NCBI GenBank assembly: GCA_963668175.1 | Contig: OY764159.1 | Coordinates: 3,776,001 to 3,840,000, forward strand | DNA length: 64,000 bases | From: Syntrophales bacterium | GTDB taxonomy: Bacteria; Desulfobacterota; Syntrophia; Syntrophales; PHBD01 | Direction of reading: 5' to 3' | Shown: piece by piece, positions 15,954 through 57,768 of the stretch | Layout: each line of letters opens with the position of its first letter | Position numbering within the stretch: the stretch's first letter is position 1 | Translations under genes and position numbers: made by a program | Notes under the pieces: generated by a model | Databases searched by the model: none | Seen by the model: the letters and a program-made list of their open reading frames with translations, nothing else | Told to the model about the DNA's origin: nothing

Positions 15954-16107
15954 ATCCGTTCTATCCGGATCCTGTCTTTGATTTGTCTTCCATAGGTACT
16001 TCTTTGCAATTACTGATTATTTTACAATCATTAAAAATACCGCAATCAACGCTTGATTTATTTTTTGCATTGTGCCATTAATCTTCGCGCATCAGGAGAT
16101 GGGGATT

Positions 16108-17752: not shown

Positions 17753-18331
17753 ATGCTGGAGATACGCTTTCACGGACGCGGCGGCCAGGGGACGGTCGTA
17801 TTGTCCATCCTGCTCGCCAAGGCCTTTTTTCAGGCAGGATTTCAGGTCCAGAGTTTCCCCTTTTTCGGCGTCGAGCGCAGGGGAGCCCCGGTCGAAGCCT
17901 ACCTGCGCCTGGACCAGAAAAAGATTCTTGCCAGAACCAATGTAACGACGCCGGACCACGTCGTCGTTCAGGACCAGACATTGCTTAACAGTATCGATCT
18001 TACAAAGGGCTTGCGTCCCGGCGGCTGGGTGTTGCTCAACGGCACAGCCCAATCGGTCGACGTAGACCGTTTTCCTCACCAAAGGATAGCTGTCGTCGAC
18101 GCCGGCAAGATCGCCCTGAAGCACGAACTGGGGAGCCGCACGCATCCCATCGTCAATACGGCCATGATGGGCGCATTCGCCCGCATGATGGAAATGCCGC
18201 CGATGGACGCCATCGTCGCGGCCATCCGTGAGGAAGTGCCCGCCGAACCGGACAGGAATATCGCCGCGGCTGAAGAGGCCTATCGCGAAGTCCAGTTCAT
18301 CAGAAATATCATCAGCGAGGATCGAAAATGA
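17753..18331 (+). CDS. 2-oxoacid:acceptor oxidoreductase gamma subunit
   Basis: EIRFHGRGGQG, FGVERRGAP, NTAMMGA. Confidence 0.93.
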   Translation: MLEIRFHGRGGQGTVVLSILLAKAFFQAGFQVQSFPFFGVERRGAPVEAYLRLDQKKILARTNVTTPDHVVVQDQTLLNSIDLTKGLRPGGWVLLNGTAQSVDVDRFPHQRIAVVDAGKIALKHELGSRTHPIVNTAMMGAFARMMEMPPMDAIVAAIREEVPAEPDRNIAAAEEAYREVQFIRNIISEDRK

Positions 18332-20076
18332 ACACAGCGACCCAAGATACCAAAGCTTTATACATGCCTCGTTCCCACGAAACGACGGAAAGCAACAAGA
18401 CCGGATCATGGCGCTACCTCCGCCCCCGGTATGAGGAAAAGACATCTCCGTGCAGCAACGCCTGCCCGGCGGGGGAAGATATCGCCAGGATCGAGATGCT
18501 TACCACCCAGGCATCGTTCAAGGAAGCATGGGAAACCATTCTCATGGAGAATCCGTTTCCCGGGGTGTGCGGATGTGTCTGCTTTCATCCCTGCGAGAAT
18601 AACTGCAACCGGCAGCATTTCGACTCCGCCATCGCGATCAATAAAATAGAACGTTTCCTCGCCGATACCGCTCTTCGCAACGAACTCAAGCCCTTCCTGA
18701 CAAAACGCTCCGGCCAGCCCGAGAAGATCGCCGTCATCGGCGCCGGTCCCGCGGGCCTTTCCGCCGCCTGGTTTCTCAACATGCTGGGATACGCCTGCGA
18801 TGTCTTCGAATCCCAGGACGAACCGGGAGGCATCCTGCGGTGGGGCATTCCCGAATATCGCCTGCCGCTGGCCGTTCTGAAAACCGAAATCTCCAGGATC
18901 GAGGACCAGGGGATTAATATCCTCACCGGACAGAAGGTGTCGGAAAAGCGCCTGGAGGAGATTCGCAAGCAATACAAGGCCGTCTTCCTCGGTTGCGGTT
19001 ATTCCCTGAGCACGCCCCTCGGGATTTCCGGGGAGACGGAAGAAACCGTTCTGGACGGTCTGGCCTTTCTCCATAAAGTCAGAAACGGCGAGAAACCATC
19101 ATGTGATGGCGTCTCGGCCGTCATCGGCGGCGGCAACACCGCCATCGATGTGGCCCGTACGATCGTAAGGCTGGGAGGAAAGGCCGTAATCCTCTACCGG
19201 CGGAGAAGAGCGGACATGCCCGCCTTCGAGGACGAAGTGATCATGGCCCTGGACGAGGGCGTGGAATTGAACGAGCTGCTGGCTCCCGCCGGTATCGACA
19301 CACAAGGCGGTAAGAAGCTTCTGACCATGAAGAGAATGAAGGTCGAAGGCCAGGACAAAGACGGGCGGGGGCGGATCGTTCCCGCCGGCGACCAAACCGT
19401 CACGGTCACCGTCGACAGGGTCTTCACGGCGACGGGCGCCGGTGCGGACGAAACCTGGTACAATCCTCCCACGGCTGAGAAGGGCGTCAAGCCGTTCAGT
19501 CACTGTACGCTCGTAACCCGCGACGGAGCCCCGTTCCTTTACGGAGGCGATCTGACCAACGGCATCAAAAACGTCACGCAGGCCATTGCCTCGGGAAAAC
19601 AGGCGGCCATGATCCTGGATACATACTTCCGGGAAGGCATGGACCGCATCGTCCCCAGGCTCGAAGAATGCACGGTGGGCAGCGGCCCGTCCCTATCCAT
19701 GGAAATCTACATGGGCGGCCCCCGCAGCAAGCGCAGCCCCCACGTTGTCCAGTACAGCGAGATCAATACCGATTATTTTCAATTCGAACCCCGGATCTCC
19801 CAACCGCGTCTGCTGGCGGAGGAACGGGTAAAGACCTTTGCCGAGATCGATCTGAAGATATCGGCAAACCTGGCCATTCGCGAGGCGGAACGGTGTTTCA
19901 ACTGCGGCGTCTGCAACCAGTGCGACAATTGTTACCTCTTTTGCCCCGATGTCGCCGCACTCAGGGAAAGCAACAAGGAAAACCGCCATATCGACTACGA
20001 TTATTGCAAAGGCTGCGGCCTCTGTGCGGCGGAATGCCCCCGCAACGCAATGACGCTTGGAGAGGAGGGGATATAA
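18328..20076 (+). CDS. fused delta (2[4Fe-4S]) subunit / GltD-like FAD-NAD(P)H oxidoreductase
   Basis: N-terminal KTGSWR..RP (PorD-like); CSNACP and CGCVC..PCE..C; GAGPAG; GGGNTA; C-terminal CxxCxxCxxxCP and DYDYCKGCGLCAAECP. Confidence 0.85.
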   Translation: MNTATQDTKALYMPRSHETTESNKTGSWRYLRPRYEEKTSPCSNACPAGEDIARIEMLTTQASFKEAWETILMENPFPGVCGCVCFHPCENNCNRQHFDSAIAINKIERFLADTALRNELKPFLTKRSGQPEKIAVIGAGPAGLSAAWFLNMLGYACDVFESQDEPGGILRWGIPEYRLPLAVLKTEISRIEDQGINILTGQKVSEKRLEEIRKQYKAVFLGCGYSLSTPLGISGETEETVLDGLAFLHKVRNGEKPSCDGVSAVIGGGNTAIDVARTIVRLGGKAVILYRRRRADMPAFEDEVIMALDEGVELNELLAPAGIDTQGGKKLLTMKRMKVEGQDKDGRGRIVPAGDQTVTVTVDRVFTATGAGADETWYNPPTAEKGVKPFSHCTLVTRDGAPFLYGGDLTNGIKNVTQAIASGKQAAMILDTYFREGMDRIVPRLEECTVGSGPSLSMEIYMGGPRSKRSPHVVQYSEINTDYFQFEPRISQPRLLAEERVKTFAEIDLKISANLAIREAERCFNCGVCNQCDNCYLFCPDVAALRESNKENRHIDYDYCKGCGLCAAECPRNAMTLGEEGI

Positions 20077-20077
20077 T

Positions 20078-21247
20078 ATGAAACGGGTACTTGAAGGAAG
20101 CCAGTCCGTCGCCGAAGCCGTGCGGATGGCCAAGGTTCAGGTCGTATCGGCCTATCCGATCACGCCGCAGACGCACATCGTGGAGATCATCTCCGATTAC
20201 TGCGCTACCGGCAAGATGGACGCGCGGTTCCTGCGCGTAGAGAGCGAGCACTCCTGCCTGGCCGCCCTGATCGGCGCCGAAAGCATGGGCGTGCGCACCT
20301 TTACGGCGACATCCTCCCAGGGTCTGGCTCTGATGCACGAGCTCCTGCACTGGGCATCCGGCGCCCGCCTTCCTATTGTCATGGCCGAGGTCAACCGGGC
20401 CCTCGCCCCCGGCTGGAACATCTGGACGGACCAGAGCGACAGCCTATCCCAGCGCGATACGGGATGGCTCCAATTCTACTGCGAAGACGGCCAGGAAGTC
20501 TACGACACGACGCTCCAGTCTTTCCGCCTGGCCGAGACGATCAACCTTCCGGTCATGGTGGTACTGGATGCCTTTCTCCTTTCCCACACGTACGAACCGG
20601 TGGACGTCCCCGAACAGGAGGCCGTCGACCGCTTCCTGCCCCCGTATAAGCCGGAGTTTCGTCTGGATACGCGGGACCCCTTCGCCTTGAGCCCGCTGGT
20701 AACGCCGGTCAACTACATGGAGATGCGATACGATATCGCCACGGCCATGGACGAGGCGAGGGTGCGTTTCAACGATATCGAGAATGAATTTGCAGGCATC
20801 TTCGACCGCCGTTACGGACCGATCGAGGCCATTGCCTGCGACGATGCGGAGATTGTCCTCGTAACATCGGGAACCATGACCAGCACGGCCCGCCAGCTTC
20901 TCGAGGAACTGCGGGCCAAGGGCGAGCGGATCGGCGTCCTGAAGATCAAAATGTTCCGGCCGTTCCCCGTTGAGGAGGTCCGCAGGGCCTTAAAGAGTGC
21001 CCGGAAAGTGGCCGTGATCGACCGGAATTTCTCTTTCGGCGCGAGCGGCATCTTCGCCCAGGAAATCAGGGCCGCCCTTTGCAACGTACCCGGTCATCCG
21101 CCCGTATTCGGATACATCGCCGGGCTCGGAGGCCGGGATGTAACGACATCCGTGCTGTCGGATATCTACAACCGGACCAAAACCAGCAACGTCCCTGCAA
21201 CGGAAAGCATCTGGGTGGGGCTTCAGGAGGTGAAACGTGCAAATTGA
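20078..21247 (+). CDS. 2-oxoacid:acceptor oxidoreductase alpha subunit
   Basis: AYPITPQT, VESEH, TATSSQGL, GLGGRD. Confidence 0.93.
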   Translation: MKRVLEGSQSVAEAVRMAKVQVVSAYPITPQTHIVEIISDYCATGKMDARFLRVESEHSCLAALIGAESMGVRTFTATSSQGLALMHELLHWASGARLPIVMAEVNRALAPGWNIWTDQSDSLSQRDTGWLQFYCEDGQEVYDTTLQSFRLAETINLPVMVVLDAFLLSHTYEPVDVPEQEAVDRFLPPYKPEFRLDTRDPFALSPLVTPVNYMEMRYDIATAMDEARVRFNDIENEFAGIFDRRYGPIEAIACDDAEIVLVTSGTMTSTARQLLEELRAKGERIGVLKIKMFRPFPVEEVRRALKSARKVAVIDRNFSFGASGIFAQEIRAALCNVPGHPPVFGYIAGLGGRDVTTSVLSDIYNRTKTSNVPATESIWVGLQEVKRAN

Positions 21248-22118
21248 CGCTTTCGATCGTGAATATATGTGCTCGGGCCATGTCGGATGCCCGGGCTGCG
21301 GTGCAACCATCGCCATGCGCTTTGTGATGAAAGCCTTGGGCGAAAAAACGGTCATGGTCCTTCCCGCCTGCTGCTGGTCGGTTATTTCCGGGCCGTATCC
21401 CCAGTCGACCATGAAGATTCCGGTTCTCCACACGGCCTTTGAAACAGGCGGCGCGGCGGCCAGCGGCGTCCGGGCGGCCCTCGACATGAAGGGCGATACC
21501 GATACGACCGTCATCACCTGGGCCGGCGACGGCGGGACATTCGACATCGGCTTCCAGGCCTTAAGCGGGGCCGTCGAGCGGAACGAAGACTTCATCTATA
21601 TCTGCTACGACAACGAGGCTTACATGAACACGGGCATCCAGCGAAGCTCGTCCACGCCTTACGGAGCCTGGACGACGACGACGCCGGGACAGGATTGGAA
21701 GAAGATGCGGAAAAAGAACATCGTGGAATCCCTTGTCGCCCACCGCATCCCCTATGCGGCCACGGCCAATATCGCTTTTCCGGAAGATCTGGTCCGCAAG
21801 GCGAGGAAAGCCCGTGAAGTGAAAGGCTCCCGGTTCCTGCATATCTACGCAAGCTGCCCGACCGGCTGGAAGATTCCCTCCGAGTTGTCCGTAAAGATCG
21901 CCCGGATGGCCGTGCAAACCAATATTTTTCCCCTCTACGAAGTTGAAGACGGCGTCCGCTATACGATCAATTACCGGCCGAAGGAGTATCTCGTCCGGGA
22001 ATACTTCAAACTTCAGGGACGTTTCCGGCACCTGACCGACCAGGACCTCGACCATATCCAGCAGATGGTGGACGAAGACTGGGCGCTTCTCTTGAGAAAG
22101 GCGGGCGAACGTTTGTAA
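21237..22118 (+). CDS. 2-oxoacid:acceptor oxidoreductase beta (TPP-binding) subunit
   Basis: CPGCG, GDG..DIG ... DNEAYMNTG, CPTGW; GTG start behind AGGAGG. Confidence 0.93.
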   Translation: MQIDAFDREYMCSGHVGCPGCGATIAMRFVMKALGEKTVMVLPACCWSVISGPYPQSTMKIPVLHTAFETGGAAASGVRAALDMKGDTDTTVITWAGDGGTFDIGFQALSGAVERNEDFIYICYDNEAYMNTGIQRSSSTPYGAWTTTTPGQDWKKMRKKNIVESLVAHRIPYAATANIAFPEDLVRKARKAREVKGSRFLHIYASCPTGWKIPSELSVKIARMAVQTNIFPLYEVEDGVRYTINYRPKEYLVREYFKLQGRFRHLTDQDLDHIQQMVDEDWALLLRKAGERL

Positions 22119-44534: not shown

Positions 44535-45869
44535 TTATTTGCTGCTCTTTCTCCAAATATTCATCTTCTGCGCGTCCTTGACCAATTCATCCCGCAGGTC
44601 GGGATGGGCAATACCGATCAGGGCTTCGGCTCTCTGCCAGGTGGATTTTCCTGCGAGGTCCGCGACACCGTATTCCGTTACGATCATATGGGCCTGGGTA
44701 CGGGGAACGGTCACGATCGATCCCTGGGGAAGCATCGGGGTAATGCGGGATTTCACATTGCCCTGTTTGTCCTTGTAGGAGGCGTTGCAGCAGATGAAGG
44801 ACATGCCGCCGTTGGACATATAGGCGCCGGTCGCATAGTCCAGCTGTCCGCCGGTGCCGCTGATGTGCCGCGGGCCGGAAGATTCGGACGAGATCTGCCC
44901 GAACAGGTCGACCTCGACACAAGCATTGATGGAAACCATATTGTCATGCTTCGCCATGATATGCGGCGCGTTGGTGTAGGATACCGGGTACGATGCCAGC
45001 GACGGGTTCAAGTCCATCCAGTCATAGAGGAACTGGCTGCCGGCGGCAAAGGCGTAAGCGCTCTTGCCTTTATCCAAACCCTTCTTCTTGTTGGTCAGCT
45101 TGCCCGCTTCATGCATATGGTAATAGGCGTCAACCAGCATCTCCGTATGGCAACCCAGGTCCTTGATATCCGATTCTGCGAGCATCGTGCCGACGATATT
45201 GGGCAGACCGCCGATGCCCAATTGGATGCAGGCGCCGTCCGGAATCATGGGAACGACGTGCCCGGCGATTTTCTTGTCGATTTCCGTCGGCGCAGCCGGG
45301 GGAATGACCTCGACCTTGGACTCGTGCTCGACGATATAGTCAACCTCGGAAACATGGACGACTTCATCACATCCGCCCATCGCCCAAGGAAGGAGGGGAT
45401 TCACTTCCAGGATAATTTTCTTGGAAATATCGAGGGCGGCGCGCACCGAGGCATTTCCCATATGGAAACTGAAGAATCCGTCCTTGTTCATCTTGGTCAC
45501 CCGGATCATCGACACATCCACGCTCTTGATACTTTTCTTGTAAAAGAGCGGCTGATTACGGAAGATCATCGGATGATAGTAGGCCCTGCCGCGGTCATGC
45601 AGCTTGCGGACGTATCCACTGAAATGCCAGTCTTGCAGGGTGAATACGTCGCCTTCGGGATCGGCCTCGATACAGGCCTGGGGGGTCAAGGTCAACGTGT
45701 GCCTGATGTTGATGTTCTTGAGCTCATCTTTGCGGGCTGCGAGGGCCTTGTCAAGTGCGACCGGCTTGGTGTGGCCGAATCCGTACTCAATCCAATCTCC
45801 ACTCTTCACCACTTTCACTGCTTCTTCGGGGCTAACAAGTTTCCTGCGATACTCTTCTGCGTGTGACAT
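44535..45869 (-). CDS. acetyl-CoA hydrolase/transferase family CoA-transferase (butyryl-CoA:acetate / 4-hydroxybutyrate type)
   Basis: EEY..KLVS..EAV..VKSGDW, QLGIGG, catalytic HTEM, SGTGGQLD, VTEYG, IAHPD.R. Confidence 0.9.
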   Translation of the reverse strand: MSHAEEYRRKLVSPEEAVKVVKSGDWIEYGFGHTKPVALDKALAARKDELKNINIRHTLTLTPQACIEADPEGDVFTLQDWHFSGYVRKLHDRGRAYYHPMIFRNQPLFYKKSIKSVDVSMIRVTKMNKDGFFSFHMGNASVRAALDISKKIILEVNPLLPWAMGGCDEVVHVSEVDYIVEHESKVEVIPPAAPTEIDKKIAGHVVPMIPDGACIQLGIGGLPNIVGTMLAESDIKDLGCHTEMLVDAYYHMHEAGKLTNKKKGLDKGKSAYAFAAGSQFLYDWMDLNPSLASYPVSYTNAPHIMAKHDNMVSINACVEVDLFGQISSESSGPRHISGTGGQLDYATGAYMSNGGMSFICCNASYKDKQGNVKSRITPMLPQGSIVTVPRTQAHMIVTEYGVADLAGKSTWQRAEALIGIAHPDLRDELVKDAQKMNIWRKSSK

Positions 45870-46321
45870 CGAACTACCTCCTATTTTTTTTTATGCCTCT
45901 GGTATAGGTGGCGCGTCTGTCCAAAAACGACTTCGATTTGTATAAGAATATGTCTGCCGAAAACGTTTTACATGTTTAACCCTGCCTCACCACACCACCT
46001 AAACAAAATGCAGTGACAGCTATCATATCTGCCATCAAAAAGCAATCGTGAATTGTCAGCCTGTAATCGTCGTCTTTTTAGTTTATTTTACAAGCAATTG
46101 GCGACTTGTTCGACGGAAATATCACCGATTCTCGACGATGCACGGGACCGCCATGCGAGCTGCCCCGTCAACCGTTATGTAACGATTAACCAATCGACGA
46201 ACACACCACAGCAATTTATATGTAATTGATTTTTCTACCGATTGAATGGGACAAAGATACGGTCAAGGAATTGAACGTATTATATTGTTATGCGCTTGAG
46301 GTTTTACGGTCATCATGAATC

Positions 46322-46354
46322 GACAAAAAGAGGCTGCCCGATCAGGGCACGCCT
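46322..46354 (-). terminator. intrinsic terminator downstream of two small ORFs
   Basis: Minus strand AGGCGTGCCC-TGATC-GGGCAGCCT-CTTTTTGTC. Confidence 0.55.
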
Positions 46355-46521
46355 ACGAGGCCCATCGCTCTTTTCCGCAGTCTTCCCAACGGCCAGATCT
46401 GAATAGACAGCGGGCTCGCCTCTTTTGTCAGGTTGTGCGATTCCTCCTCAAGATACTTTAAACCAGGAGCACTCGACTCGCGCGGCGCTCAATCCACTCC
46501 CTACCCCTGAGAGAAAGGTGT

Positions 46522-46632
46522 TTAGTGCATAACGTCGTTCACAAGAGTCGACTCGTAGCATTCCAGAGTTTCCTGCTTATCGGCATATTTATCTTTGCTT
46601 TTTCGATCTATAGGTTTGTCTTGCTTTTTCAT
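46522..46632 (-). CDS. putative 36-aa small protein (60 aa if GTG at 46704 is used)
   Basis: AAAGGAG SD; MKKQDKPIDRKSKDKYADKQETLECYESTLVNDVMH. Confidence 0.4.
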   Translation of the reverse strand: MKKQDKPIDRKSKDKYADKQETLECYESTLVNDVMH

Positions 46633-46826
46633 CGCTTTTCTCCTTTCGTTGTTTTTCGTCTTCACCTTAAAAGAAACGCTCCCGATCCATGATCCTGCGA
46701 TCACTTTCTCCTCCTCCATTCGTTCATGGACGGGGGCGCCCCCCCGCCTATAAACGAATGTTAGGAGATAGTCAGTGTCGTATTGCAGAATATACGATGA
46801 CTGACCAAGAGCTTCCGGAAATATTG

Positions 46827-46919
46827 TTACCTGAACATCGGGCCGCACATGGGATCGACCCACCGCTTCGCATCCAACTGTTTTTCTCTTTTGACTTCCT
46901 TCTTGATCGCCTTTCTCAT
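46827..46919 (-). CDS. putative 30-aa small protein
   Basis: Near-perfect SD TAAGGAGGT; MRKAIKKEVKREKQLDAKRWVDPMCGPMFR; absent from the ORF track. Confidence 0.45.
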   Translation of the reverse strand: MRKAIKKEVKREKQLDAKRWVDPMCGPMFR

Positions 46920-47374
46920 GACGCCACCTCCTTAGGGTTGAACATCGATGATATTTAAGGGGCCCGATTCACGCCTTTCCAGGCCCCGCCCTTCTTCCGT
47001 TGATGCTATGCTATCACACCGTCATTTAAAAAAAATCCGCAGCAGTCTGAAATCTCAATCAGACGTCCATCATTAAATCGCTCGGAATAGACGGCACCAG
47101 GCCATCGGACATTGTCTGATGCGATCCCGGAAAACGTTTAAGTATCCAGGCTATATTTCCGTCTTCCATCTACACCTGAGACATTAAATGTGGCAGGACG
47201 CCCCGCCGCAGATTCCGCAAAAAAAAGACTTGAGGTAAATCCTCTTCAATGCTTAAGTAAAATGAAGAGAGCTGACGACCGAGTTTCACGCCGAGTTCCA
47301 GGATATCCATCTTCTTACTCATCATTTCGAAGCAGTTGACTTTTGGTAATAAACTTTATCCTCAACCAATCGTT

Positions 47375-48670
47375 ATGACCGTCGACACAAAGCCGAACAA
47401 ATTGATGACCCGCGAACCCTTTCTGTCAATAACGCAGGCAGACAAGGGCTTCCTGCCGCTTTTGGAGGAACTGAGCAAAGCCGAGCAGGAAAAATCGGTC
47501 ATTCTGGACGCCATGACCGAACTCGTCCTGTACCTGGACAAAGACCTGAGGGTTATCTGGGCCAACAAGGCGATGCAAGCCGCTTTCAGCCTGGTTCCCG
47601 GACAATTGAACGGGAAATACTGTTTTGAAGTACTCCACAAGAGGAACAGGCCGTGCAGCAGTTGCCCGGCGGAAAAAACCCTGAAGACCGGCGAACCCCG
47701 CGAGGTCGTCAATCTTACTTCTTATAAGAAAAACTGGGTCTTGCGCAGTTACCCCGTTCGGGACGAAAACGGGGAGCTTTCGGGCGTCGTGGAAATCGTC
47801 ACGGACATCACCGAAAGAAGGCGCGCCGAAGAGGCTTTGAGAAAGTCGGAGCGCAAGTACCGGGAACTTTTCGAAAACGCGAACGACATCATTTTTATAC
47901 TGGATTTCACCGGCAAGATCCTGTCCAGCAATACGGCCTTTTCCAAGACATTCGGTTACGAACCGGAACAGATCAGAGGGCAAAGCATCGAACATATCCT
48001 TCATCCGGACGATGTTCTCCTGGTCCGTCAATTCCTGCAGAAGAAAGCGAGCGAGATCTACGTTCAGAACCCCCTTGAATTCCGGACGATGACCAGTTTC
48101 GGAGAAACGATCTGGCTGGAAGTCAACGCCAGGATCGTCAAGGAAGACGGCAGACAAGTCTCCATTCACGGCATTGCCCGCAATATCACGGAAAGGAAGA
48201 GAATGGAGGAAGCCCTGAAGAGGAGGGAACGGGAACTGGAAGAAAAGTCGAGGAACCTGAAAGACGCCAACACGGCACTTAAGGTCCTCCTGAAACGCCG
48301 TGAAGAAGACAAGACCGAACTCGAAGAGAAGGTCTTGTGCAACATGAGGGAACTGATCCTGCCTTACATCGAGAATCTTAAGCTTGCCACCGTCGACAGC
48401 CTGCAGCGAAATCAACTGAAAATCATCGAACGGAACATCAACGAGATCATCTCCCCTTTCCTGCGCAGCCTCTTCTCGAAATATCCCAACCTTACACCCA
48501 CGGAGATCAAGATCATCAATTTTATCAAAGAAGGACGAACAACCAAGGAAATGGCCGATTTTCTCAATGTATCGGCACGGACCGTCGAGGTTCACAGGGA
48601 CAACATCCGAAAAAAACTGGGGTTGAAAAACAGGAAGGCCAATCTCCGGTCCTATCTTATGTCCATCTGA
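47375..48670 (+). CDS. PAS-PAS-LuxR(HTH) one-component transcriptional regulator
   Basis: Two PAS/PAC domains (DITERR, NITERK), coiled coil, LTPTE ... TVEVHRDNIRKKLG; start uncertain. Confidence 0.9.
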   Translation: MTVDTKPNKLMTREPFLSITQADKGFLPLLEELSKAEQEKSVILDAMTELVLYLDKDLRVIWANKAMQAAFSLVPGQLNGKYCFEVLHKRNRPCSSCPAEKTLKTGEPREVVNLTSYKKNWVLRSYPVRDENGELSGVVEIVTDITERRRAEEALRKSERKYRELFENANDIIFILDFTGKILSSNTAFSKTFGYEPEQIRGQSIEHILHPDDVLLVRQFLQKKASEIYVQNPLEFRTMTSFGETIWLEVNARIVKEDGRQVSIHGIARNITERKRMEEALKRRERELEEKSRNLKDANTALKVLLKRREEDKTELEEKVLCNMRELILPYIENLKLATVDSLQRNQLKIIERNINEIISPFLRSLFSKYPNLTPTEIKIINFIKEGRTTKEMADFLNVSARTVEVHRDNIRKKLGLKNRKANLRSYLMSI

Positions 48671-48699
48671 AGCCCGATCGCGGCTCTACATAGCATATT

Positions 48700-48727
48700 T
48701 ACGTAGATAATAAGTATTTTTTCCGTA
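48700..48727. promoter_or_regulatory. three phased hexamer repeats, candidate regulator binding site
   Basis: TACGTA-N5-TAAGTA-N5-TCCGTA (11-bp period) directly before a TTGCAT -35-like box. Confidence 0.4.
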
Positions 48728-48838
48728 TTGCATCTTCATTCAATCGGTGTTTCTATCAACCCCAAAAGGATAATGCCGATTGTCGGATGCAGAGACAGCC
48801 AGCTCATTTTGACCGAATTCCATAAGGAGGTGTAACCT

Positions 48839-49381
48839 ATGACACGAGAAGAAAAGATTGAGGAAATACGCCAGCGCGCCCGGAAGAATTTTTCCCTGGG
48901 GTACAATTGTGCCGAATGCGTGACCGAAGCCGTTTTAAGTCTCGTTGACACGGGACTCCCGCCTGAAGTGAAGAAAGTGGCTACAGGGTTTGGCGGCGGC
49001 ATCGGGCTTTTCGGAGATACATGCGGAGCCTTGGCGGGGGCCGTTATGGCCGTAAGCGCCGTTCACGGAAGGGCATCTCTTCCCGAGGGAGCAGACCCCA
49101 AGGAAGTCGCCATGAAATCAAAACAGAACTTCTATGGCAAACCGGGCGTTTACAGGATTTTCAATCAGGTGCCCAACCGCTTCATGGCCAAGCACGGCAA
49201 GACCCTGTGCCGGGAATTGACGGTTTTATGGCAGGACTCCTGGCTTTGCAAGGAGCACGCCCTTTTCTGCCGGGAATTGATCACCGACGCCGCAGGCATC
49301 GCCGCGGACCTCATCCTTTCCGACAAGGCGGAACTGTCCATGAAACCGTTCGGAAAAAACGTGGAAAACCTGAAAGACTGA
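48839..49381 (+). CDS. C-GCAxxG-C-C family putative redox-active protein
   Basis: YNCAE, GFGGG...TCGALAG, LCREL, FC; TAAGGAGG SD. Confidence 0.88.
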   Translation: MTREEKIEEIRQRARKNFSLGYNCAECVTEAVLSLVDTGLPPEVKKVATGFGGGIGLFGDTCGALAGAVMAVSAVHGRASLPEGADPKEVAMKSKQNFYGKPGVYRIFNQVPNRFMAKHGKTLCRELTVLWQDSWLCKEHALFCRELITDAAGIAADLILSDKAELSMKPFGKNVENLKD

Positions 49382-49584
49382 AGTCTGTCCGGTGAATACC
49401 TGAGGCGTAACGAGATAAAATATAGCGAGTTACATCCTTCGGAAGCATACCGGAGGCCTGAGCGCAGAGGTGTTGAATCGTTGCGCATGCAAGGATCCTT
49501 CCGGGACGTCGCGGAGTTTTCGAAGACGACACCCGGAAGACATCCGGCAGCGACGAGAAAAAACAGAAGGAGAATGCAGGAGAC

Positions 49585-50919
49585 ATGGGACGTAAACTGG
49601 TAGTAATCGGCGGCGGTGCGGCAGGCCCCTCTACGGCCGCGGAAGCGAAGAGAAGAGACAAGTCGCTTGACGTTACGATGATTGAAGGAGGCAACTTCGT
49701 CTCTTACGCGGCCTGACCGATGCCTTATTACATCGGTGATGTAATCAAAGATTACAAGCGGCTGGTGATCCGGACACCCGAAGATTTCGAAAAAACGGGC
49801 GTCCATGTGAAAATCAATACCCGCGCGGAAGACATCGACGCCCAAAAGGGCCTGGTCCGCTTATCCGACCAATCGAGCCTGCCTTACGACATTCTGGTCA
49901 TGGCCACCGGAGCCGCAGCGCAACGCTTGAACATTCCGGGCGCCGACATGGAAGGTGTTTTCGTTCTCAGAGATCTCGGCGATGCCCTTAAGATTAAAGC
50001 CTACTTGAACGAGAAGACCTGCCGTAAAGCCGTTCTTATCGGCGCCGGCTACGTCGGGATGGAAATGTGCGAGGCATTGCGGAATCTCGGTATCGAGACG
50101 ACCGTTCTCGATATCCTTCCCCGTCCTGTTGTTCGCTGGGATGCGGAATTTTCAAAACTGGTCCTCGAAGAACTGGGAAAGAACAACGTCCCTTTCCTGG
50201 CGGAGACGAAACCCCTTGCCATCGAACCGGGGAAAGAGAGCCGCCTTATCCTGAGAACCGACAAGGGGGACATGGATGCGGACCTTATCTTAATGGGCGT
50301 CGGCACCCGTCGGGATATGACACTGGCAAAAGCCGTGGGCATCGAGGCGGGCGCCAGCGGCGCCATCAAAGTGGATTCCCGGCAGCGGACATCTATTCCC
50401 GATATCTACGCCGTCGGCGACTGCTGCGAGGTCTTTCACAAAGTAGCCAACCGCTGGGTCTATTTCCCTCTGGGCGACATCGCCAACAAGCAGGGTCGCG
50501 TAGCCGGCCAGAACATCGGCGGAAATCCCGCCGAATTCCCCGGTATCGTTGGCGCCCAGTCTTTCAAGGCGTTCAACCTTGAAGTCGGGGCCACGGGACT
50601 TACGGAAGACGAAGCGACATTGTATGGATTCCAGCCTGTAAGTTCCCTCATCTGGGGGCTCCCCATCGGGCGGCCGATGGCAAAAGGCGAGAAACTGGGG
50701 ATAAAACTCATAGCAGACAAGACCACGGGAAAGCTTATCGGTGGTCAATGCATCGGTGAAAAAGGGGCCATTCAGCGCGTTTTCGCCTTGTCCGTAGCAC
50801 TATGGTCGGGTTTGCACATCGATGAAGTCGGCTACCTGGACTTTCCTTATGCACCGCCTTTCGGCGGCGCCTGGGATGCCATTCACATCGCCGCCCAGGA
50901 TCTGGCGAGAAAGATATAA
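49585..50919 (+). CDS. probable selenocysteine-containing CoA-disulfide reductase/NADH oxidase family flavoprotein (444 aa, Sec44)
   Basis: ATG 49585 behind AGGAG; GGGAAG FAD motif; SYAA-TGA-PMPY where the family has SYAAC/SFANC-GxPY; in frame with track ORF 49720..50919 (ATG, GAGYVG, YAVGD, ANKQG, YAPPF). Confidence 0.88.
49727..49745 (+). promoter_or_regulatory. putative bacterial SECIS element
   Basis: Perfect 8-bp stem ATTACATC-GGT-GATGTAAT; G-first loop starts 18 nt after UGA 49714-49716. Confidence 0.7.
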
Positions 50920-50980
50920 CAAGCATAGGCCTCACGGGGGACAGGTCGCAGGTTACACAAGAACATTCAGGAGGTCGGCA

Positions 50981-51301
50981 ATGGCGGCAAGTGCGTCGGG
51001 AGTAGAGATGATCGCAATAAGTATGGACGGTAAGGTACACCGTGTCTATCAGGGTTTGTCCGGTACCTTTGCCGGTCTGTCTTATTGCTGCGTCGATAAA
51101 AGGATGCTGCCCGGTTTTTTCGAGAAAGACCTGGTTGCGGAAGCCGCGTTAAAAGACCGGAAGCTTTCCCTTTCGCTTTCGGGACATCTCTCCAGATCGG
51201 AATTGCTGGAGATATTGGAAACAGCTTTACTGAACATGGTGGCCTTCCCCCTCCCGGGGAGCAAGGCCGATTTCTTCATAGAGGCTAAATCCAACAAATA
51301 A
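50981..51301 (+). CDS. hypothetical protein (106 aa) with vicinal CC
   Basis: CAGGAGGT SD; fills the gap between the flavoprotein and dehydratase genes; SYCCVD. Confidence 0.6.
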   Translation: MAASASGVEMIAISMDGKVHRVYQGLSGTFAGLSYCCVDKRMLPGFFEKDLVAEAALKDRKLSLSLSGHLSRSELLEILETALLNMVAFPLPGSKADFFIEAKSNK

Positions 51302-51312
51302 GGGAGGTCATT

Positions 51313-52761
51313 ATGGCATTAAAGACGGCGAACGAATTTTTGGACAGCATCAAAAAAATGAAGCCCCGTGTATACTGCGGAGGGAAATGGGTCACGAATC
51401 TCTTGGACAATCCCGTTACCCGATCGATGGTCATGGCCAACTCGGCAATCTACGGACTGGCGGAAGACCCGAACAACAAAGAGGTCATGGTGGCGACATC
51501 CCACTTGACGGGGGAACCGATCAACCGTAACCTTAACGTGGCCAGAAACATCCACGACCTGGATATGCGCCAGGAAATGGCCCTGCTCACCAGCCAGACC
51601 GTCGGCACCTGCAACTACCGCTGTGTCGGCTGCGACGCCTTAAACAGCCTGGCTGCCACGACATGGGAAATGGACCGCGATCTGGGCACGAAATATAATG
51701 AGCGATTCAATAAATGGCTCACCTATGCGCAGAACAACGACCTGGCCGTTTCCGGCGCAATTACCGACGCCAAGGGCGATCGCAAGAAGAGGCCTTCCCA
51801 GCAGGACGACATCGATACCTATATCCACTTAAACGAAAAGCGCGACGACGGCATCGTGGTAAGCGGAATCAAGGTCAGCCAGAGCGGAGCCATCGGTTCC
51901 CATGAAACACTCGTCCTCCCGGGCGGTGGAATGAAGGAAGGAGAGGAAAAATTCGCCTTGGCCTTCGCCGTTCAGAACAGTGCTCCAGGCGTGACGTATA
52001 TCTGCCAGTACAACGCCTACTCGGCGGAACGGGCTGCATGCGACAGCGAAGACGAACTGGGAAATCCGATTTACGGCCAGCGGGAAACTTCGACGATGGT
52101 CTTCGACAACGTCTTTATCCCCTGGGAGCGGGTCTTTCTTTGCGGCGAAACGAAATACTGCGGCAAGATGGTTACCCGCTTCGCCAAGGCCCATCGCATG
52201 AACTGCGGCGGCGCCTGCAAGGTCGGATTCGCCGACCTGATTATCGGCGGCGCCATGATGGCAGCCGAATTAACGGGTGTTGAAAAAGTCCCGCACATCC
52301 AGGAAAAAATCATCGATATGGTCCGTTTCAGCGAAACCTCCCACGCTTGCGCCATCGCTGCCGCCATGCGGGGCAGAGAGGAGCCCAAGGGTTCGGGCGT
52401 CTACCTCCCGGACGATCTCTTCGGCAACGCCGCCAAGCTGAACATCGCCCACGGCTTCTGGGAAATACTGAAGAATGCCGGGGATATCGGCGGCGGGCTC
52501 GTCGTCACCATGCCGAGATTGAAAGACCTGGACAACCCGGAAGTCGGTCCGATGTTGAAGAAGGCATTTACAGCCGCCGGTCCGGCCGATCAGCGCTTAA
52601 AAGTCGCCAAGTTCCTGCAGCACTGGACGGCAGGCCTGCACGGGCCGGGGACATGGCATGGCGCCGGCGCGCCCCAGTCTCAGCGGGTCATGTTTACGGT
52701 CCTTACGGATTTCGAAACAAAGAAGAAAATGGCCAAGAAACTGATGGGCATGAAGGAATAA
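51313..52761 (+). CDS. 4-hydroxybutyryl-CoA dehydratase (AbfD)/HpaB-family FAD-[4Fe-4S] protein, atypical active site
   Basis: CNYRCVG.D, TDAKGDR..RPSQQ.D, VFDNVFIPWERVFLCGE, HRMNCGGACKVG, HGAG.PQ.Q. Confidence 0.88.
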   Translation: MALKTANEFLDSIKKMKPRVYCGGKWVTNLLDNPVTRSMVMANSAIYGLAEDPNNKEVMVATSHLTGEPINRNLNVARNIHDLDMRQEMALLTSQTVGTCNYRCVGCDALNSLAATTWEMDRDLGTKYNERFNKWLTYAQNNDLAVSGAITDAKGDRKKRPSQQDDIDTYIHLNEKRDDGIVVSGIKVSQSGAIGSHETLVLPGGGMKEGEEKFALAFAVQNSAPGVTYICQYNAYSAERAACDSEDELGNPIYGQRETSTMVFDNVFIPWERVFLCGETKYCGKMVTRFAKAHRMNCGGACKVGFADLIIGGAMMAAELTGVEKVPHIQEKIIDMVRFSETSHACAIAAAMRGREEPKGSGVYLPDDLFGNAAKLNIAHGFWEILKNAGDIGGGLVVTMPRLKDLDNPEVGPMLKKAFTAAGPADQRLKVAKFLQHWTAGLHGPGTWHGAGAPQSQRVMFTVLTDFETKKKMAKKLMGMKE

Positions 52762-52769
52762 TCAGGAAC

Positions 52770-52808
52770 AAAAACCCCGGACCGTTTCTTCGGATGGTCC
52801 GGGGTTTT
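52770..52808. terminator. bidirectional intrinsic terminator
   Basis: AAAAACCCCGGACCGTT-loop-GATGGTCCGGGGTTTT between convergent genes. Confidence 0.85.
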
Positions 52809-52829
52809 ATTCCCCGATGAAACGTTGTC

Positions 52830-55800
52830 TTATACCCTACCGTCCAAAACGTCCCGGACAATCCTGCCCAGGTCCTTTTTCGCAAAGGGCTTCATGATAA
52901 AAGCCCTGATTCCAAGTACCTTTGCCCGTGTTTCATCGATATACTCGCTGAATCCCGTGCACAGTATAATGGGTATATCCGATCTGATTTTCATGATTTC
53001 TCTTGCCAGCTCACTTCCCGGCATTGTCGGCATCGTCATATCCGTGATGACCAGATCGAATTGCGCAGGATCGGCGATAAACATCTTTAAGACCTCCACG
53101 CTGCTTGTCCCCGCCGTTACTTTATAACCGAGAGATTCGAGGATCATTCGGGCCAGATCAAGGAGTATCTTGTCGTCATCCGCATACAGGATATGTTCGT
53201 GTCCACGGGAAATGGTTTCCTCGCCGGCTATCTCCATTTCTGTGTCCTCTTTCTCGATTGAGGGAAGATAGACGTCGAAAATCGCGCCTTTCCCGCTTTC
53301 GCTGGTTACGTAAATCATACCGTCGTGATTCTTAACAATGCCGTAAACGACGGAAAGCCCAAGACCGGTCCCTTCTCCCGTCGCCTTGGTCGTGAAGAAA
53401 GGTTCGAAAATGCGTTCCTCGACGGCAGGATCTATCCCCGGTCCCGTATCGGCCACGCTCAATTTGATATAAAAACCGGGTCGAAAATCGGAATGGCCGG
53501 GTAATTTTTCAACCCGCAGATCCGCCTGTGAAAGATCGACCGTAAGGATACCCCCCTTCTCTCCCATAGCCTGGGCGGCATTTGTGCACAGATTCATGAT
53601 GATCTGGTGCATCTGGGTAATATCCGCATTGATCGTGCAGGAGGCATTGGTTATCTTCTGACGGATTTCAATTGTTGTCGGGAAGGTGGAACGGATGAGT
53701 TTGAGGGCCTCTTTCGCAATCGGTCTCAGATCGACGGGTTTCTTTTCATAGTCCGTATGGCGGCTGAAGGTCAGGATTTGCTTGACGAGGTTCTTCGCTC
53801 GGCTGGAGGCATTCAAAACTTCACTGAGTTTGCGACGGCGGCTTATGGGATCGTGTTCATCGAGCGACAACTCCGTGTAGCCGATAATCGCCGCCAGGAT
53901 GTTATTGAAATCATGGGCGATACCCCCGGCCAGCGTACCGATGGCTTCCATTTTCTGGGCTTGATGGAACTGCGTTTCTAAGTGGACACGTTCCGTTATA
54001 TCCTGGACCGTCTGAACAGCCCCGGCTACTTTTCCGGCCGGATCGAAAATTCTCGCCGCCTGAATGGATACGATCCTCTCTTCGCCATCCGGCCAGATCC
54101 TGCCGGTACTCTCGAATCGTCCGGAGAACTGGGCATTCTTCAGAATCCCCCGGTGACCGAATTTTGTCATGACTTCATCGTCCGTCATGTTCAGAAGGAG
54201 TTCGGCAAGGGATGGATGCGCTTTTCCCTTGAAAAGATGGCTGATATCCAATTCTCGTCCCATGACGTCCTCTTTTGACTTCCCCATGAAGATTTCGCTG
54301 CTCCGGTTCCAGAGGACAACTGTCCGGTCGCGGTCGATGACAAAGGCGGAAATGGGAATCCTGTCAAGGATGGCCACAAGGCGGTCGTGTTCTTGGGACA
54401 AGGCCTCTTCCATCCGGCGCCTTTCGGTGATGTCCCTGATTGATTCAATGGCGCCGACGATGGCGCCCCTTGTGTCATAAAGAGGCGCGGCCGTTCCGAG
54501 CAGGTACGCCTTTCGTCCCTGCAGGTTATGTATGTATGCCTCCCCGATGATTAAATCGTCCTGTCTTTTGATACCTTCATATTTGTTTTCAAGGCCTTCC
54601 CGAGGTTCAAACACCAGGTCGATGAGTATCGGCCTTTTCACACCATAAAAGGGGATTGCGTATTCATAATCCCCTTTCCCGAGGATATCCACGGCCATGA
54701 ATCCGGTCAGGGCTTCTATGGCCCGGTTCCAGGCGATCACCCTTCCTTCTCTGTCGATGACCATAGTCGCATCCGGCAGGAAGTTGATAATGTCGGAAAG
54801 GCGGCGTTCGCCTTCATGCAGAGCCTTTTCCGCCTGCTTACGCCGGGTGATATCAATGATAGTTCCTGAAACCAAGTTCTCTTCAAGAACGCAGGAAGTC
54901 AGGATAAATTTTGTTTCCCCGGATTTCGAAAGAACCTCTATCTCGTAATTCAGGACACGGCCATATTGCTGAAGCGACTCAAGGAATTTTCTCCGGTCGT
55001 TCCAGTCCTTATACAATGTTACGGCGTTCACTCCTATCATCGCGTTTGCCGACTCATATCCGAATATATCGGCATAGGCCTGGTTCGCGAATAATATCCG
55101 GCCGTCCGCACTCGCCTGATAAACACCGACAGGTGTATTGTCGACGAGATCCCGGTACTTCTTCTCGGAACGCCTCAGATCTTCTCCGATTTTCTTGCGC
55201 TCCGTATTGTCCCGGATACATTCGATCGCACCGATGATCTCGCCCTTCGAATTGCGGAGGATTGATGCCGTGGCGGAAAGATGGGCCCCTCGGCTCCCCT
55301 GCAGGGCCGGCGTATAGGATTCTCCGAAGAGAATCTCACCTCTTCTTTCGAACGTCGTATATTGCTTCTCAAGCTCCTCATCGGGATTCAGAACGAGATC
55401 GATAAGGGTCGGACGTCTCACACCGTAGAAAGGAACGCCATGTTCATAATTTCCCTTACCGATCATGTCTTTGGAATCGACTCCTGTCATGTCTTCCATG
55501 GCCCGGTTCCAGGCGATCACCTTTCCCTCCCGGTCGATAACCATGGTCGCATCCGGCAGAAAGTCGATAATGGTAGCCAGTTGCCGCTCGCTTTCCCGAA
55601 GGGCCTGTTCGACCTTCTTCCTCTCGGTAATATCACGGATCGACTCAATGGCCCCCGTCAGGGCGCCTTTACTGTCGTATAAAGGGCTGGCGATGCCCCA
55701 GAGGATACATGGCCTGCTTTCGGTGGACACGTCCGCTTCGGCCAGGAGCGAGCCGTCTTCGCTGCGCTGCACAAAAAGATACCTTTTTTCAATATCTTCT

Positions 55801-57332
55801 TCGGTTTGAAAGACGAGATCGATCAGAATCGGTCGCCGAACCCCGTAAAAGGGCAAGGCATATTCGTAATTCCCCCTGCCCAGCATTTTAGAAGCGCCGA
55901 TTCCGGTCATTTCCTCAATGGCCCTGTTCCAGGCGATGACACAGCCTCCTTTGTCGATGACAAAGGTCGCATCGGGCAGAAAATCAATGATATGGGCGAG
56001 CCGCTGCCGGGATTCCCTCAACTCGTCGTCGGCCTTCTTGCGCTCGGAGATGTCCCTCCAGGTCGTGTATAGAAGCCTTTTTCCCTTTACCTGAATCGAT
56101 GTCAGCATAACATCCAGATAAAGCTCCGTTCCATCCGGACGCTTGCGAACCCATTCGAAGCGGTTCGATCCCTCGGCAAATGCCAGATTGATCATCTTCT
56201 TCGCCTTTTCCGACGACAGCTCCCCATCTGGTTGCCTGTAAGGGGATATATCCTCCGGCGTCAAACCGAGAAGCTGCGATTTGTCCGAAAAACCTGCAAT
56301 TCTCAGGGCGGATTCATTGCAGTCGACGTAGCGGACCCCGTCCGTGATCAGATTGGCGTCGCCGGATTTTTCAAAGAGAAGACGGAAGACCTCCTCGCTT
56401 TCCCTCAGATGATCCTGCATCCGGATTTGCTCGGTAATATCGCGGCAGGTTCCTTCATAATAGAGAATGCCGCCCTGATCGTCGCTGACAGATCTCGCGT
56501 TAACGGCCACCCAGATTTTGCTCCCGTCTTTGCGGCGTACCTGATATTCGATGTTATCGATCCGCCCGTGCGCTTTAAGGAGACCGGAAAATCGCTCTCG
56601 CTCGACAGGATCGGCGTAGTACTCACGGGATATATCCGAAATCGCGTCGATCATCTCCTGTGGCGAGTCGTACCCGCACATGGCGGCCATGGCCGGGTTG
56701 ACCCGGATGAACCGGCCCTCCGGCGTGCTGTGGTAGATACCGACGAGCATGTTTTCATAGATGCTCCGGTAACGCACCTCGCTTTCTCTTAGTGCCTCGT
56801 TTGCCTTCAAAAGGGCAGCCGTCCGTTCCTCGACCTGCATAGACAGTCTTTCCGTAAGCTGGACAAGCTCGGCTTCCGTACGTTTCTTCTCGGTAATATC
56901 GATCGTATTGCCCAGGACGGCTCTCTTGCCCTGGTACATAATCGAAACCACTTTTTCCAACAGCCATCTGACGCTGCCGTCTTTGCAGAGGATTCGATAC
57001 TCATAAGGCGTCGGGTCTCTGCCCTTCAGCATCCCGATACCTGCGGCCCTGACCCGTATCTGATCCTCCGGATGAACAGTGTCGCTTATCAGGGAGAGTT
57101 TCAAAAGTTCTTCTTCGGAATAACCTGAATAGGAGGAAATGTGCGCATTGGTGAAAACGGTTCTGCCGTTCTGGACGATGTAGATACCGGCCTGCACACT
57201 GTCGGCGATGATCCTGAAGACGTTATCCTCCAGGTTCGACAGGGACATATCCTTCCTCAGACTATCAATCTGCAGCCGCAAGCGGGATACTTCCTCAATA
57301 AGTTCTTTTTTGTCTTTTTCGCCGTCGCGCAT
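52830..57332 (-). CDS. cytoplasmic hybrid histidine kinase with about 8 PAS domains and a receiver domain
   Basis: Repeated PAS/PAC units; [46 protein letters not shown]; start 57332 or 57365. Confidence 0.94.
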
Positions 57333-57768
57333 CGAAAAGTCCCGCCGACCGGAAAGATAGAACAAGGGATAGACACCCCGGCGGACGGACCCGAAACGTC
57401 CGTTCGGTATCCCTTGTAATTTGAAGGCTGGTTGATAATCGCCAAAGTATCTGATGAATCAACTATGAAAGAAACATGCCATGAACCAGCCGGACATCAC
57501 AGGCGATTATTATTCAGTATTTACAAAGAGATAAATGTAAGACAAGAAAAATGGGAACGACAGGGAAGGCGTTCATATCTTTTATCCCGGACGGGGCAGG
57601 AACAAGGGTCTTGGAATCAAACATCTTTCCGGAACAGAAATACGACCTTCACATCGCGAGAAAGGTCTTCACCGTATTGACTGGTATGTTTTGTCTGTTC
57701 CAAGAGGCCTTTGTCCCTCTATGACGGCGATCTCATCGGAAAGACTGCTATTCATACCGATAGTCCTG

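Follow-up and report, generated by a model that had tools for sequence, protein, structure and literature searches.

Results

A four-gene cluster behind a PAS-LuxR regulator gene

This analysis concerns a cluster of four genes at positions 48839-52761 of a 64,000-nucleotide stretch of DNA (the window) from a Syntrophales bacterium (GCA_963668175.1, contig OY764159.1), which is part of a complete 4.57-Mb genome. Its closest relatives are metagenome-assembled genomes (MAGs) labelled Syntrophales, Syntrophus, or Smithella. Gene calls and Pfam analysis agreed with an earlier note on this DNA, which had described four co-oriented genes with a PAS-LuxR regulator gene before them. All five genes lie on the plus strand within positions 47336-52814, and the intergenic gaps, from the regulator gene onward, are 168, 203, 61, and 11 nt. 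The following features were recognized (positions are those of the window):

47336..48670, plus strand: PAS-PAS-LuxR (GerE) transcription regulator (Pfam PAS_4, PAS_9, GerE)
48839..49381, plus strand: C-GCAxxG-C-C protein, 180 amino acids (aa) (PF09719, E = 5e-24; TIGR01909)
49585..50919, plus strand: FAD flavoprotein of the CoA-disulfide reductase (CoADR)/NADH oxidase (Nox) type, a pyridine-nucleotide-disulfide oxidoreductase of 444 aa with selenocysteine (Sec) at residue 44 (Pfam, NCBIfam, solved relatives)
49714..49716, plus strand: in-frame UGA read as Sec (TGA conservation, Cys orthologues, SelB and tRNA-SeC)
49724..49750, plus strand: stem-loop resembling a selenocysteine insertion sequence (SECIS), with a GGU apical loop (RNAalifold consensus of 15 sequences)
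50981..51301, plus strand: 106-aa orphan protein (open reading frame, ORF, behind a GGAGG site)
51313..52761, plus strand: divergent AbfD-family enzyme, 482 aa, of the HRMxCGGxCK subfamily (HpaB_N and HpaB_C, alignment to 1U8V)
52788..52814, plus strand: terminator-like hairpin (52788-52804) with a T-run (consensus scan, a weak match with 7 pairs, 4 of them G-C)

The regulator gene is likely that of the cluster's own regulator. The earlier note also had the cluster closed by one terminator, of which the hairpin itself is present, but its consensus match is weak and the promoter/terminator scan returned 6 terminator-like sites compared with 9.4 in shuffled sequence. Since there were fewer such sites than in the shuffles, the hairpin after the enzyme gene is no evidence by itself and is compatible with an operon end.

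The AbfD-type enzyme belongs to a distinct subfamily

The HpaB_N (E = 5e-80) and HpaB_C (6e-53) domains recognized by Pfam give the enzyme the two-domain HpaB fold over its full length, and it was aligned from end to end with AbfD of Clostridium aminobutyricum (1U8V, residues 2-490, E = 1.7e-106) and with its Nitrosopumilus counterpart (6VJR, 4.5e-96). We take Cys99, Cys103, His292, and Cys299 of 1U8V to be the ligands of the [4Fe-4S] cluster and Tyr296 and Glu455 to be active-site residues. The four ligand positions are occupied in the cluster enzyme by C100, C104, H294, and C302, which were invariant in 24 orthologues, and Glu257 is kept as well. In contrast, the position of Tyr296 is taken by Cys298, following a one-residue insertion (HRMNCGGACK versus HRQSYGG-CK), and that of Glu455 falls within a deletion of four residues (GLHGPG----TWHGAG versus VGYRTESMHGAG). 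Two further replacements were noted, that of Thr190 by Ser and that of Gln101 by Tyr. Canonical AbfD is a self-contained, redox-neutral enzyme that is known to need no external redox partner, whereas a small partner and redox proteins are co-encoded with the enzyme described here. The latter would presumably carry a [4Fe-4S] cluster and FAD and act on an acyl-CoA.

Cysteine was found at the Tyr296 position in all 88 subfamily genes that were read, and the HRMxCGGxCK signature was present in 50 of 50 genes from Syntrophales loci, in 35 of 35 from other Desulfobacterota, and in all three intermediate genes. A profile of the subfamily gave 38 matches at 726-963 bits in a 401-genome sample of the phylum, the next match scoring no higher than 566 bits. 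By sequence, the enzyme is thus a member of a distinct HRMxCGGxCK subfamily, and its description in the earlier note as an atypical AbfD-like protein is confirmed by Cys298, the loss of Glu455, and the signature itself. We also considered Cys107 as a marker of the clade whose members are accompanied by the 106-aa protein, but rejected it, as it occurs in 47 of 50 clade genes and in nine of 38 others as well. In public records, orthologues are labelled "4-hydroxybutyryl-CoA dehydratase", "aromatic ring hydroxylase", or "HpaB N-terminal domain-containing protein".

The window genome harbors ten AbfD-family genes, namely the cluster enzyme (itself single copy), six of canonical type that keep both Tyr and Glu (HRQSYGG-C and TESMHGAG), and three of a second divergent type characterized by HRHSYTG-CK and no Glu at the 455 position. 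The nine other genes are located at genome positions 3472565, 1831573, 1765676, 3499131, 3559214, 544343, 3172436, 3856541, and 3554635. The near-identity of four canonical-type copies with one another suggests that larger segments were duplicated recently.

A clade-restricted orphan protein encoded next to the enzyme

The 106-aa protein matched no Pfam or NCBIfam model, DUF59 of Pfam included, and a profile search of 1.84 billion representatives yielded no more than 25 clusters, in which one weak match was the sole fused form. The earlier note had called it a "CC" protein; the gene is real, while of the Cys pair only the second residue, C37, is invariant in an alignment of 18 sequences. Its AlphaFold2 (AF2) model is confident (pLDDT 91.2), and no significant match to a solved fold was found with it (best Foldseek E = 0.18; best VIA Z = 4.5, to unrelated chains). 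The weak top Foldseek rows are of DUF59 type, i.e., 3CQ1 (E = 0.18, probability 0.44, TM 0.37) and 3LNO, and a protein atlas search yielded no usable match. The gene is single copy in the window genome, and the protein evolves fast, sharing 38-52% identity among relatives in comparison with 83-91% for the enzyme. The ORFs upstream of two distant subfamily members (loci L139 and L148) are unrelated to it (hhalign probability about 1% or less). The 106-aa protein, restricted to one clade, is probably a small subunit or partner of the enzyme.

The flavoprotein is encoded as a selenoprotein

The reading frame of the flavoprotein is open only if the TGA codon at 49714-49716 is read through, which places Sec44 in the context SYAA-U-PMPYY. 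Pfam identified Pyr_redox_2, Pyr_redox, and Pyr_redox_dim, corresponding to FAD and NAD(P)H domains together with a dimerization domain. The best NCBIfam models were CoA-disulfide reductases, both below their equivalog cut-offs (NF007123, 361.5 versus 458 bits; TIGR03385, 356.5 versus 578.8 bits), and the best solved relatives were the NADH oxidase 6RUZ (4e-87) and CoA-disulfide reductases, with full-length similarity extending to 4FX9, 3KD9, and 1NHP. In the CoA-disulfide reductase/NADH oxidase/NADH peroxidase group, whose full-length likeness the protein shares, the redox-active Cys (as in 6RUZ and 6PFZ) stands where U44 is found here. The group also differs from the cluster flavoprotein in that the latter is paired with a C-GCAxxG-C-C protein and encoded next to an AbfD-type enzyme. 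The C-terminal rhodanese domain of some longer solved relatives (551-588 aa versus 444 aa) is missing.

The Sec that the earlier note had proposed for this protein was supported by several observations: (i) the TGA was retained in 12 of 12 orthologues inspected; (ii) among 38 motif matches in Syntrophales loci, a stop codon stood at this position in 37 and Cys in one, a second Cys form being spotted by eye (the Cys forms are at L070 and L096); (iii) a stem-loop with a GGN apical loop, starting 10 nt after the UGA, was conserved in 15 of 15 nucleotide sequences, housekeeping paralogues included, all of which keep the core stem pairs, with wobble changes in two cases and compensatory changes in one pair (RNAalifold); and (iv) a SelB wing domain and tRNA-SeC were found in the same genome. 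In the window, the hairpin consists of a continuous 8-bp stem beginning 11 nt downstream of the UGA, its base lying at 8 nt. Neither the SECIS region nor the long spacers matched an Rfam family at either of the thresholds applied. The UGA at a Cys position, the hairpin behind it, and the SelB/tRNA-SeC machinery together mark the flavoprotein as a bacterial selenoprotein. The Sec-containing CoADR-like proteins, to which it belongs, are an already known selenoprotein family (PMC13188914, PMC9312934), for which a UGxP motif is listed, as opposed to U-P-M-P in the cluster flavoprotein.

Homologues of the flavoprotein occur in 149 of the 201 genomes of an even sample of the order, nearly all with one TGA. 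Those of 49-58% identity lie in the context of TrxB-like, Lgt, flavoprotein, and SpoU genes, and the cluster-linked proteins form a mostly separate, more conserved group (61-81% identity), two Lgt-context copies reaching 62%. The housekeeping locus (TrxB-like reductase, Lgt, Sec-flavoprotein, SpoU methylase) is kept across many families of the order (L116-L131). In the window genome, this housekeeping copy is absent and the cluster copy is the sole one. Its 5' spacer (49382-49584) measures 203 nt, compared with about 17-100 nt in relatives, and contains no ORF and no Rfam match. Two irregular copies were encountered: in G151 (L076), a fragment of the flavoprotein gene lies 94 nt upstream of the enzyme gene without a small-protein gene between them, and in G100 (L067), the gene matches as two overlapping pieces in different frames and may be frameshifted.

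The C-GCAxxG-C-C protein resembles split-Soret cytochrome c

The first protein of the cluster scored well above the cut-offs of its families (PF09719, 85.1 versus 27 bits; TIGR01909, 62 versus 47.4 bits). Its invariant Cys residues are C24, C27, C62, C124, and C144, which cover the four Cys of the motif (C27 or C24, C62, C124, and C144). The AF2 model (pLDDT 80.7) matched the split-Soret cytochrome c of Desulfovibrio desulfuricans (1H21_A) with a Foldseek probability of 1.0 and TM of 0.61, and VIA superimposed 153 of 180 residues on the same chain (Z = 12.8, rmsd 3.7 Å, 20% identity), the next match having Z of 4.8. The family profile aligned with this chain weakly (E = 0.58), though exactly over the GCAxxG motif and the last Cys. 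Hence, the two proteins share the fold, the motif, and the last Cys, and differ in that the window protein is cytoplasmic, shorter (180 versus 247 aa), and of marginal sequence similarity. The title of the 1H21 entry in the PDB refers to "a novel iron centre", which Abreu et al. reportedly described in 2003 as a Cys-bound [2Fe-2S] cluster. The earlier note had treated the protein as a thiol redox protein. Because its model matches split-Soret cytochrome c, it is more likely an iron-centre electron carrier, and we regard this as its probable nature. A C-GCAxxG-C-C protein is acetone-induced in Desulfococcus biacutus (PMC4103992).

Linkage of the genes in Syntrophales

The neighborhood of the enzyme was followed in two sets of loci that overlap in species, i.e., 20 species-representative loci and 48 fetched Syntrophales loci with an enzyme of at least 80% identity; presence and absence were counted in the 201 genomes mentioned above. 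In the smaller set, the small protein was found at 17 loci, the flavoprotein at 14, and the C-GCAxxG-C-C protein and the PAS-LuxR regulator at 12 each. In the larger one, the 106-aa gene was located directly upstream of the enzyme gene in 47 of 48 cases; within 6 kb, there was a flavoprotein gene at 36 loci, a C-GCAxxG-C-C gene at 34, and a PAS-LuxR orthologue at 35, loci without the redox pair among the last. At three further loci, the flavoprotein and C-GCAxxG-C-C pair was 9-17 kb off. Among the 201 genomes, 53 had the small protein, 49 had an orthologue of the enzyme (at least 83% identity), and 48 had both; in the five genomes with the small gene alone, it was situated at a contig end or beside a truncated enzyme gene.

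An HdrD-like CCG protein with Fer4_8 and CCG domains, which weakly matched (32 bits) the NCBIfam model NF045663 "diclust_near_Sec", was encoded at 17 of the 48 loci. Its orthologue in the window genome (72% identity) is located elsewhere, beside a thioesterase-family gene. With P for the regulator, C for the C-GCAxxG-C-C protein, F for the flavoprotein, S for the small protein, A for the enzyme, and H for the HdrD-like protein, the gene orders included P-C-F-S-A, H-P-C-F-S-A, P-C-F-H-S-A, H-P-S-A-C-F, S-A-H-C-F, and S-A-C, at least five orders in all. The C-GCAxxG-C-C gene directly preceded the flavoprotein gene at nearly all loci that link the two. The earlier note had proposed a neighborhood check for conserved linkage of the enzyme to its three partners, and such linkage was indeed found in Syntrophales, through rearranged gene orders. 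Also within the order, at locus L129, a Sec-flavoprotein gene (63% identity) directly precedes that of a subfamily member of 48% identity.

The divergent CoA-transferase gene near the cluster, which the earlier note had mentioned as a neighbor, was present at none of the 20 loci; it is particular to the window genome and was rejected as a cluster member. Genes for sulfur transfer (rhodanese, DsrE, TusA) were not conserved at the cluster loci. Downstream of the cluster in L001, L003, and L009, we found a mutase gene together with MeaB. In one MAG labelled Bacillota (L017), the small protein (33% identity) and the enzyme (76% identity) are encoded as a pair beside a divergent TetR regulator, and redox partners are absent, which suggests that the pair was transferred on its own.

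Subfamily members in other orders

Thirty-five subfamily loci from other Desulfobacterota orders were inspected for up to 8 kb on each side. In two of them, belonging to two other families (L167 and L187), a C-GCAxxG-C-C gene adjoins a subfamily member of about 50-55% identity, and a PAS-LuxR-like gene was likewise found at two of the 35. Genes related to acyl-CoA metabolism, encoding AMP-binding ligases, an enoyl-CoA hydratase, and a mutase, occur near subfamily members elsewhere.

Two arrangements are worth recording. L159/L187 (G288) contain a packed, operon-like set on one strand that encodes an enoyl-CoA hydratase, a C-GCAxxG-C-C protein, the subfamily enzyme, a protein of metallo-β-lactamase fold, and a BcrAD/BadFG-type ATPase. 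The BcrAD/BadFG ATPase family includes activators of other radical dehydratases, and its presence here may hint at electron injection. Four loci of a single family of Desulfobacterota (L143, L150, L154, and L158) encode a subfamily member of 57-60% identity and, in tandem, a second AbfD paralogue of 33-35% identity, next to an aldehyde:ferredoxin oxidoreductase gene; one of these loci has a methylmalonyl-CoA-mutase-like gene as well.

Discussion

A possible redox relay serving the AbfD-type enzyme

The findings led us to propose, tentatively, that the cluster is an accessory operon of Syntrophales in which an NAD(P)H-linked relay would supply or re-poise a Cys-dependent enzyme of AbfD type; we consider this quite possible, though short of probable, and likelier than the alternatives below. 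Gene order and co-occurrence support a cluster built from two tight pairs, in which the enzyme goes with the small protein and the flavoprotein with the C-GCAxxG-C-C protein; the whole is probably under PAS-LuxR control. The first pair would be catalytic, composed of the AbfD-fold enzyme and the 106-aa single-Cys protein. The second would be a redox supply, in which the selenoflavoprotein takes electrons from NAD(P)H and the C-GCAxxG-C-C protein, of split-Soret fold, most likely contributes an iron centre, with the HdrD-like CCG iron-sulfur protein added in many genomes. NAD(P)H might thus reduce the selenoflavoprotein, whose electrons would pass to the C-GCAxxG-C-C protein, optionally with the CCG protein or the small protein taking part, and finally to the enzyme. 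There, the relay would bring Cys298, FAD, or the iron-sulfur cluster to its proper redox state or return it to that state. In contrast to the canonical dehydratase, the enzyme would then either catalyze a net redox reaction or be held in its active form. The sequences themselves show the gene content, the Sec decoding signals, the altered active site, and the conserved linkage; co-transcription, physical contacts, the direction of electron flow, and the substrate are what we infer.

The proposal is founded on (i) the distinctness of the enzyme, (ii) its tight pairing with the small protein (an 11-nt gap, a single copy of each gene, and adjacency at 47 of 48 loci), (iii) linkage to the redox pair that persists through at least five gene orders, (iv) recurrence of either redox partner outside the clade (L129, L167, L187), (v) the iron-centre fold predicted for the C-GCAxxG-C-C protein, and (vi) recurrence of a trio of families in Clostridium ljungdahlii. 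A syngas-induced operon of this bacterium encodes an aldehyde oxidoreductase, a disulfide-oxidoreductase/CCG fusion, a 4-Cys protein, and a C_GCAxxG_C_C protein (PMC5640608). The flavin disulfide oxidoreductase, CCG, and C-GCAxxG-C-C families lie beside a presumed client enzyme there as well. The two systems differ in that C. ljungdahlii has its flavoprotein and CCG parts in one fused protein and an aldehyde oxidoreductase as the client, whereas in Syntrophales the genes are separate, Sec is used, and the client would be of AbfD type.

Several observations weigh against this proposal. The linkage counts come from related genomes and overlapping sets of loci and for this reason show conservation, not independent events. 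Neither redox gene was present in the fetched stretch of nine of the 48 Syntrophales loci, some of which are cut by contig ends; the enzyme occurs without redox partners in L014, L018, and L017, and two genomes (L107 and L111) have the redox pair on another contig. Conversely, the pair is found without the enzyme in L132 and L133, and in L121 the C-GCAxxG-C-C gene is inserted into the housekeeping locus of the flavoprotein, again without the enzyme. That the selenoflavoprotein has a housekeeping paralogue among TrxB-like, Lgt, and SpoU genes in the order also belongs here. Among the 35 loci of other orders, the small-protein gene was present at none and an adjacent C-GCAxxG-C-C gene at just two; no close selenoflavoprotein was found within about 8 kb at any of them, two having flavoproteins of 26-27% identity. 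Since subfamily members of other orders mostly lack the partners, the enzyme fold per se needs no encoded neighbors. Finally, CoADR-type enzymes are thiol or two-electron enzymes, which makes their coupling to an iron-centre carrier hypothetical.

Alternative explanations

Much of this would be expected if the two modules were independent and merely co-travelled, the redox pair being a general unit of thiol homeostasis or oxidative stress (reduction of CoA-disulfide, peroxide, or polysulfide) that would owe its place beside the enzyme solely to common regulation or to having hitch-hiked on a mobile island. Besides the pair without the enzyme, its occasional location on another contig or 9-17 kb away, and a wider subfamily that mostly stands alone, this explanation accommodates the wide distribution of flavoprotein homologues and their housekeeping context, the possibility that the sole flavoprotein copy of the window genome also does housekeeping work, and the patchiness of the cluster within genera combined with 83-91% identity of its proteins across families, which fits a mobile unit. 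Against it speak the proximity that survives so many gene orders, the recurrence of either partner by distant subfamily members, and cluster-linked flavoproteins that are mostly distinct from the housekeeping ones, the two Lgt-context copies at 62% apart. We judge it unlikely, though it is the main alternative. An ordinary 4-hydroxybutyryl-CoA dehydratase, acting in a 4-hydroxybutyrate or crotonate pathway and having unrelated neighbors, is highly improbable: membership of the Pfam and 1U8V family, the name given to orthologues in public records, and a butyryl-CoA:acetate-type CoA-transferase gene 3 kb upstream on the other strand would all agree with it, but two catalytic positions are lost, the genome already has six canonical-type paralogues, the CoA-transferase gene is missing from all 20 related loci, and the cluster contains no other gene of the 4-hydroxybutyrate pathway.

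The two remaining explanations assign the partners a different task. In one, which we find distinctly unlikely, the cluster serves the catabolism of a sulfur-substituted acyl-CoA: the enzyme would catalyze the elimination of a C4 thiol or thioether (e.g., from 4-mercapto- or 4-methylthio-butyryl-CoA), and the selenoflavoprotein would reduce the resulting persulfide, CoA-persulfide, or mixed disulfide. The positions altered in the enzyme (Tyr296 to Cys, loss of Glu455) are those that face the leaving group in canonical enzymes, the solved relatives of the flavoprotein include the CoA-persulfide reductase 8A56 (2e-63) besides CoA-disulfide reductases, and both the HdrD-like CCG proteins at 17 of 48 loci and the ligase, hydratase, and mutase genes near other subfamily members would suit such a route; the lack of a conserved rhodanese, DsrE, or TusA gene and of a rhodanese domain in the flavoprotein, as well as the resemblance of the C-GCAxxG-C-C protein to an iron-centre carrier, speak against it. 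The other casts the small protein, the C-GCAxxG-C-C protein, or both as factors for the insertion or repair of the enzyme's oxygen-labile cluster, for which the flavoprotein would provide reducing power. The DUF59-type Foldseek rows of the small protein, its fast evolution, which is frequent in accessory factors, and the predicted iron binding by Cys of the C-GCAxxG-C-C protein point in this direction; yet the fold matches are not significant, there is no DUF59 match in Pfam, and most subfamily members have no such genes nearby, which makes maturation or repair quite improbable. The earlier note had offered sulfur recycling and activation or protection of the enzyme as mechanisms, and the evidence favors neither.

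The proposed relay can be taken one step further. The HRMxCGGxCK proteins might form a new functional class of AbfD-fold radical enzymes, with an active-site Cys and, in Syntrophales, a dedicated small subunit, which would convert an acyl-CoA in a net reductive or otherwise partner-dependent way (e.g., by reductive C-O or C-S cleavage) using electrons delivered from NAD(P)H through the Sec flavoprotein and the split-Soret-type protein. We regard this extension as doubtful. If true, these proteins would be the first relatives of the ketyl-radical dehydratases to have a selenium-dependent redox chain of their own, and the C-GCAxxG-C-C family would receive its first assigned role.

Genomic surroundings of the cluster

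Two genes on the minus strand flank the region:

44535-45869, minus strand: butyryl-CoA:acetate-type CoA-transferase, divergent, about 3 kb upstream of the cluster
52830-57365, minus strand: PAS-rich hybrid histidine kinase of 1511 aa with many repeated PAS modules, converging on the cluster

The kinase gene was not conserved beside the cluster at the 20 loci of relatives, where solely cross-matches of PAS domains appeared. The interval of about 1.5 kb between the CoA-transferase and PAS-LuxR genes (45870-47335) contains no convincing ORF and no Rfam match. Elsewhere in the window, a class III polyhydroxyalkanoate (PHA) synthase pair (PhaE/PhaC-like) is accompanied by GAF, MaoC, and polyhydroxybutyrate (PHB)-regulator genes (10098-16629), and the 2-oxoacid:ferredoxin oxidoreductase encoded by four genes at 17753-22118 has a Fer4_20/Pyr_redox_2 subunit.

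Significance

A literature search, whose coverage left most subscription journals outside, retrieved no paper on the cluster or the HRMxCGGxCK subfamily. All four families or folds were already known; what appears to be new, at the level of sequence comparison, is the subfamily, its orphan partner, and the fact that both remain linked to a selenoflavoprotein and a split-Soret-type protein across loci. AbfD is the textbook radical dehydratase that works without an outside redox partner, and a widespread sister subfamily that has an altered active site and, in syntrophs, is co-encoded with a selenoflavoprotein and a probable iron-centre protein points to undescribed chemistry for this fold. The cluster also offers a client or context for C-GCAxxG-C-C proteins, Sec-containing CoADR-like proteins, and the orphan 106-aa family. 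Furthermore, the present public labels may mislead pathway reconstructions that use 4-hydroxybutyryl-CoA dehydratase as a marker, e.g., of carbon fixation.

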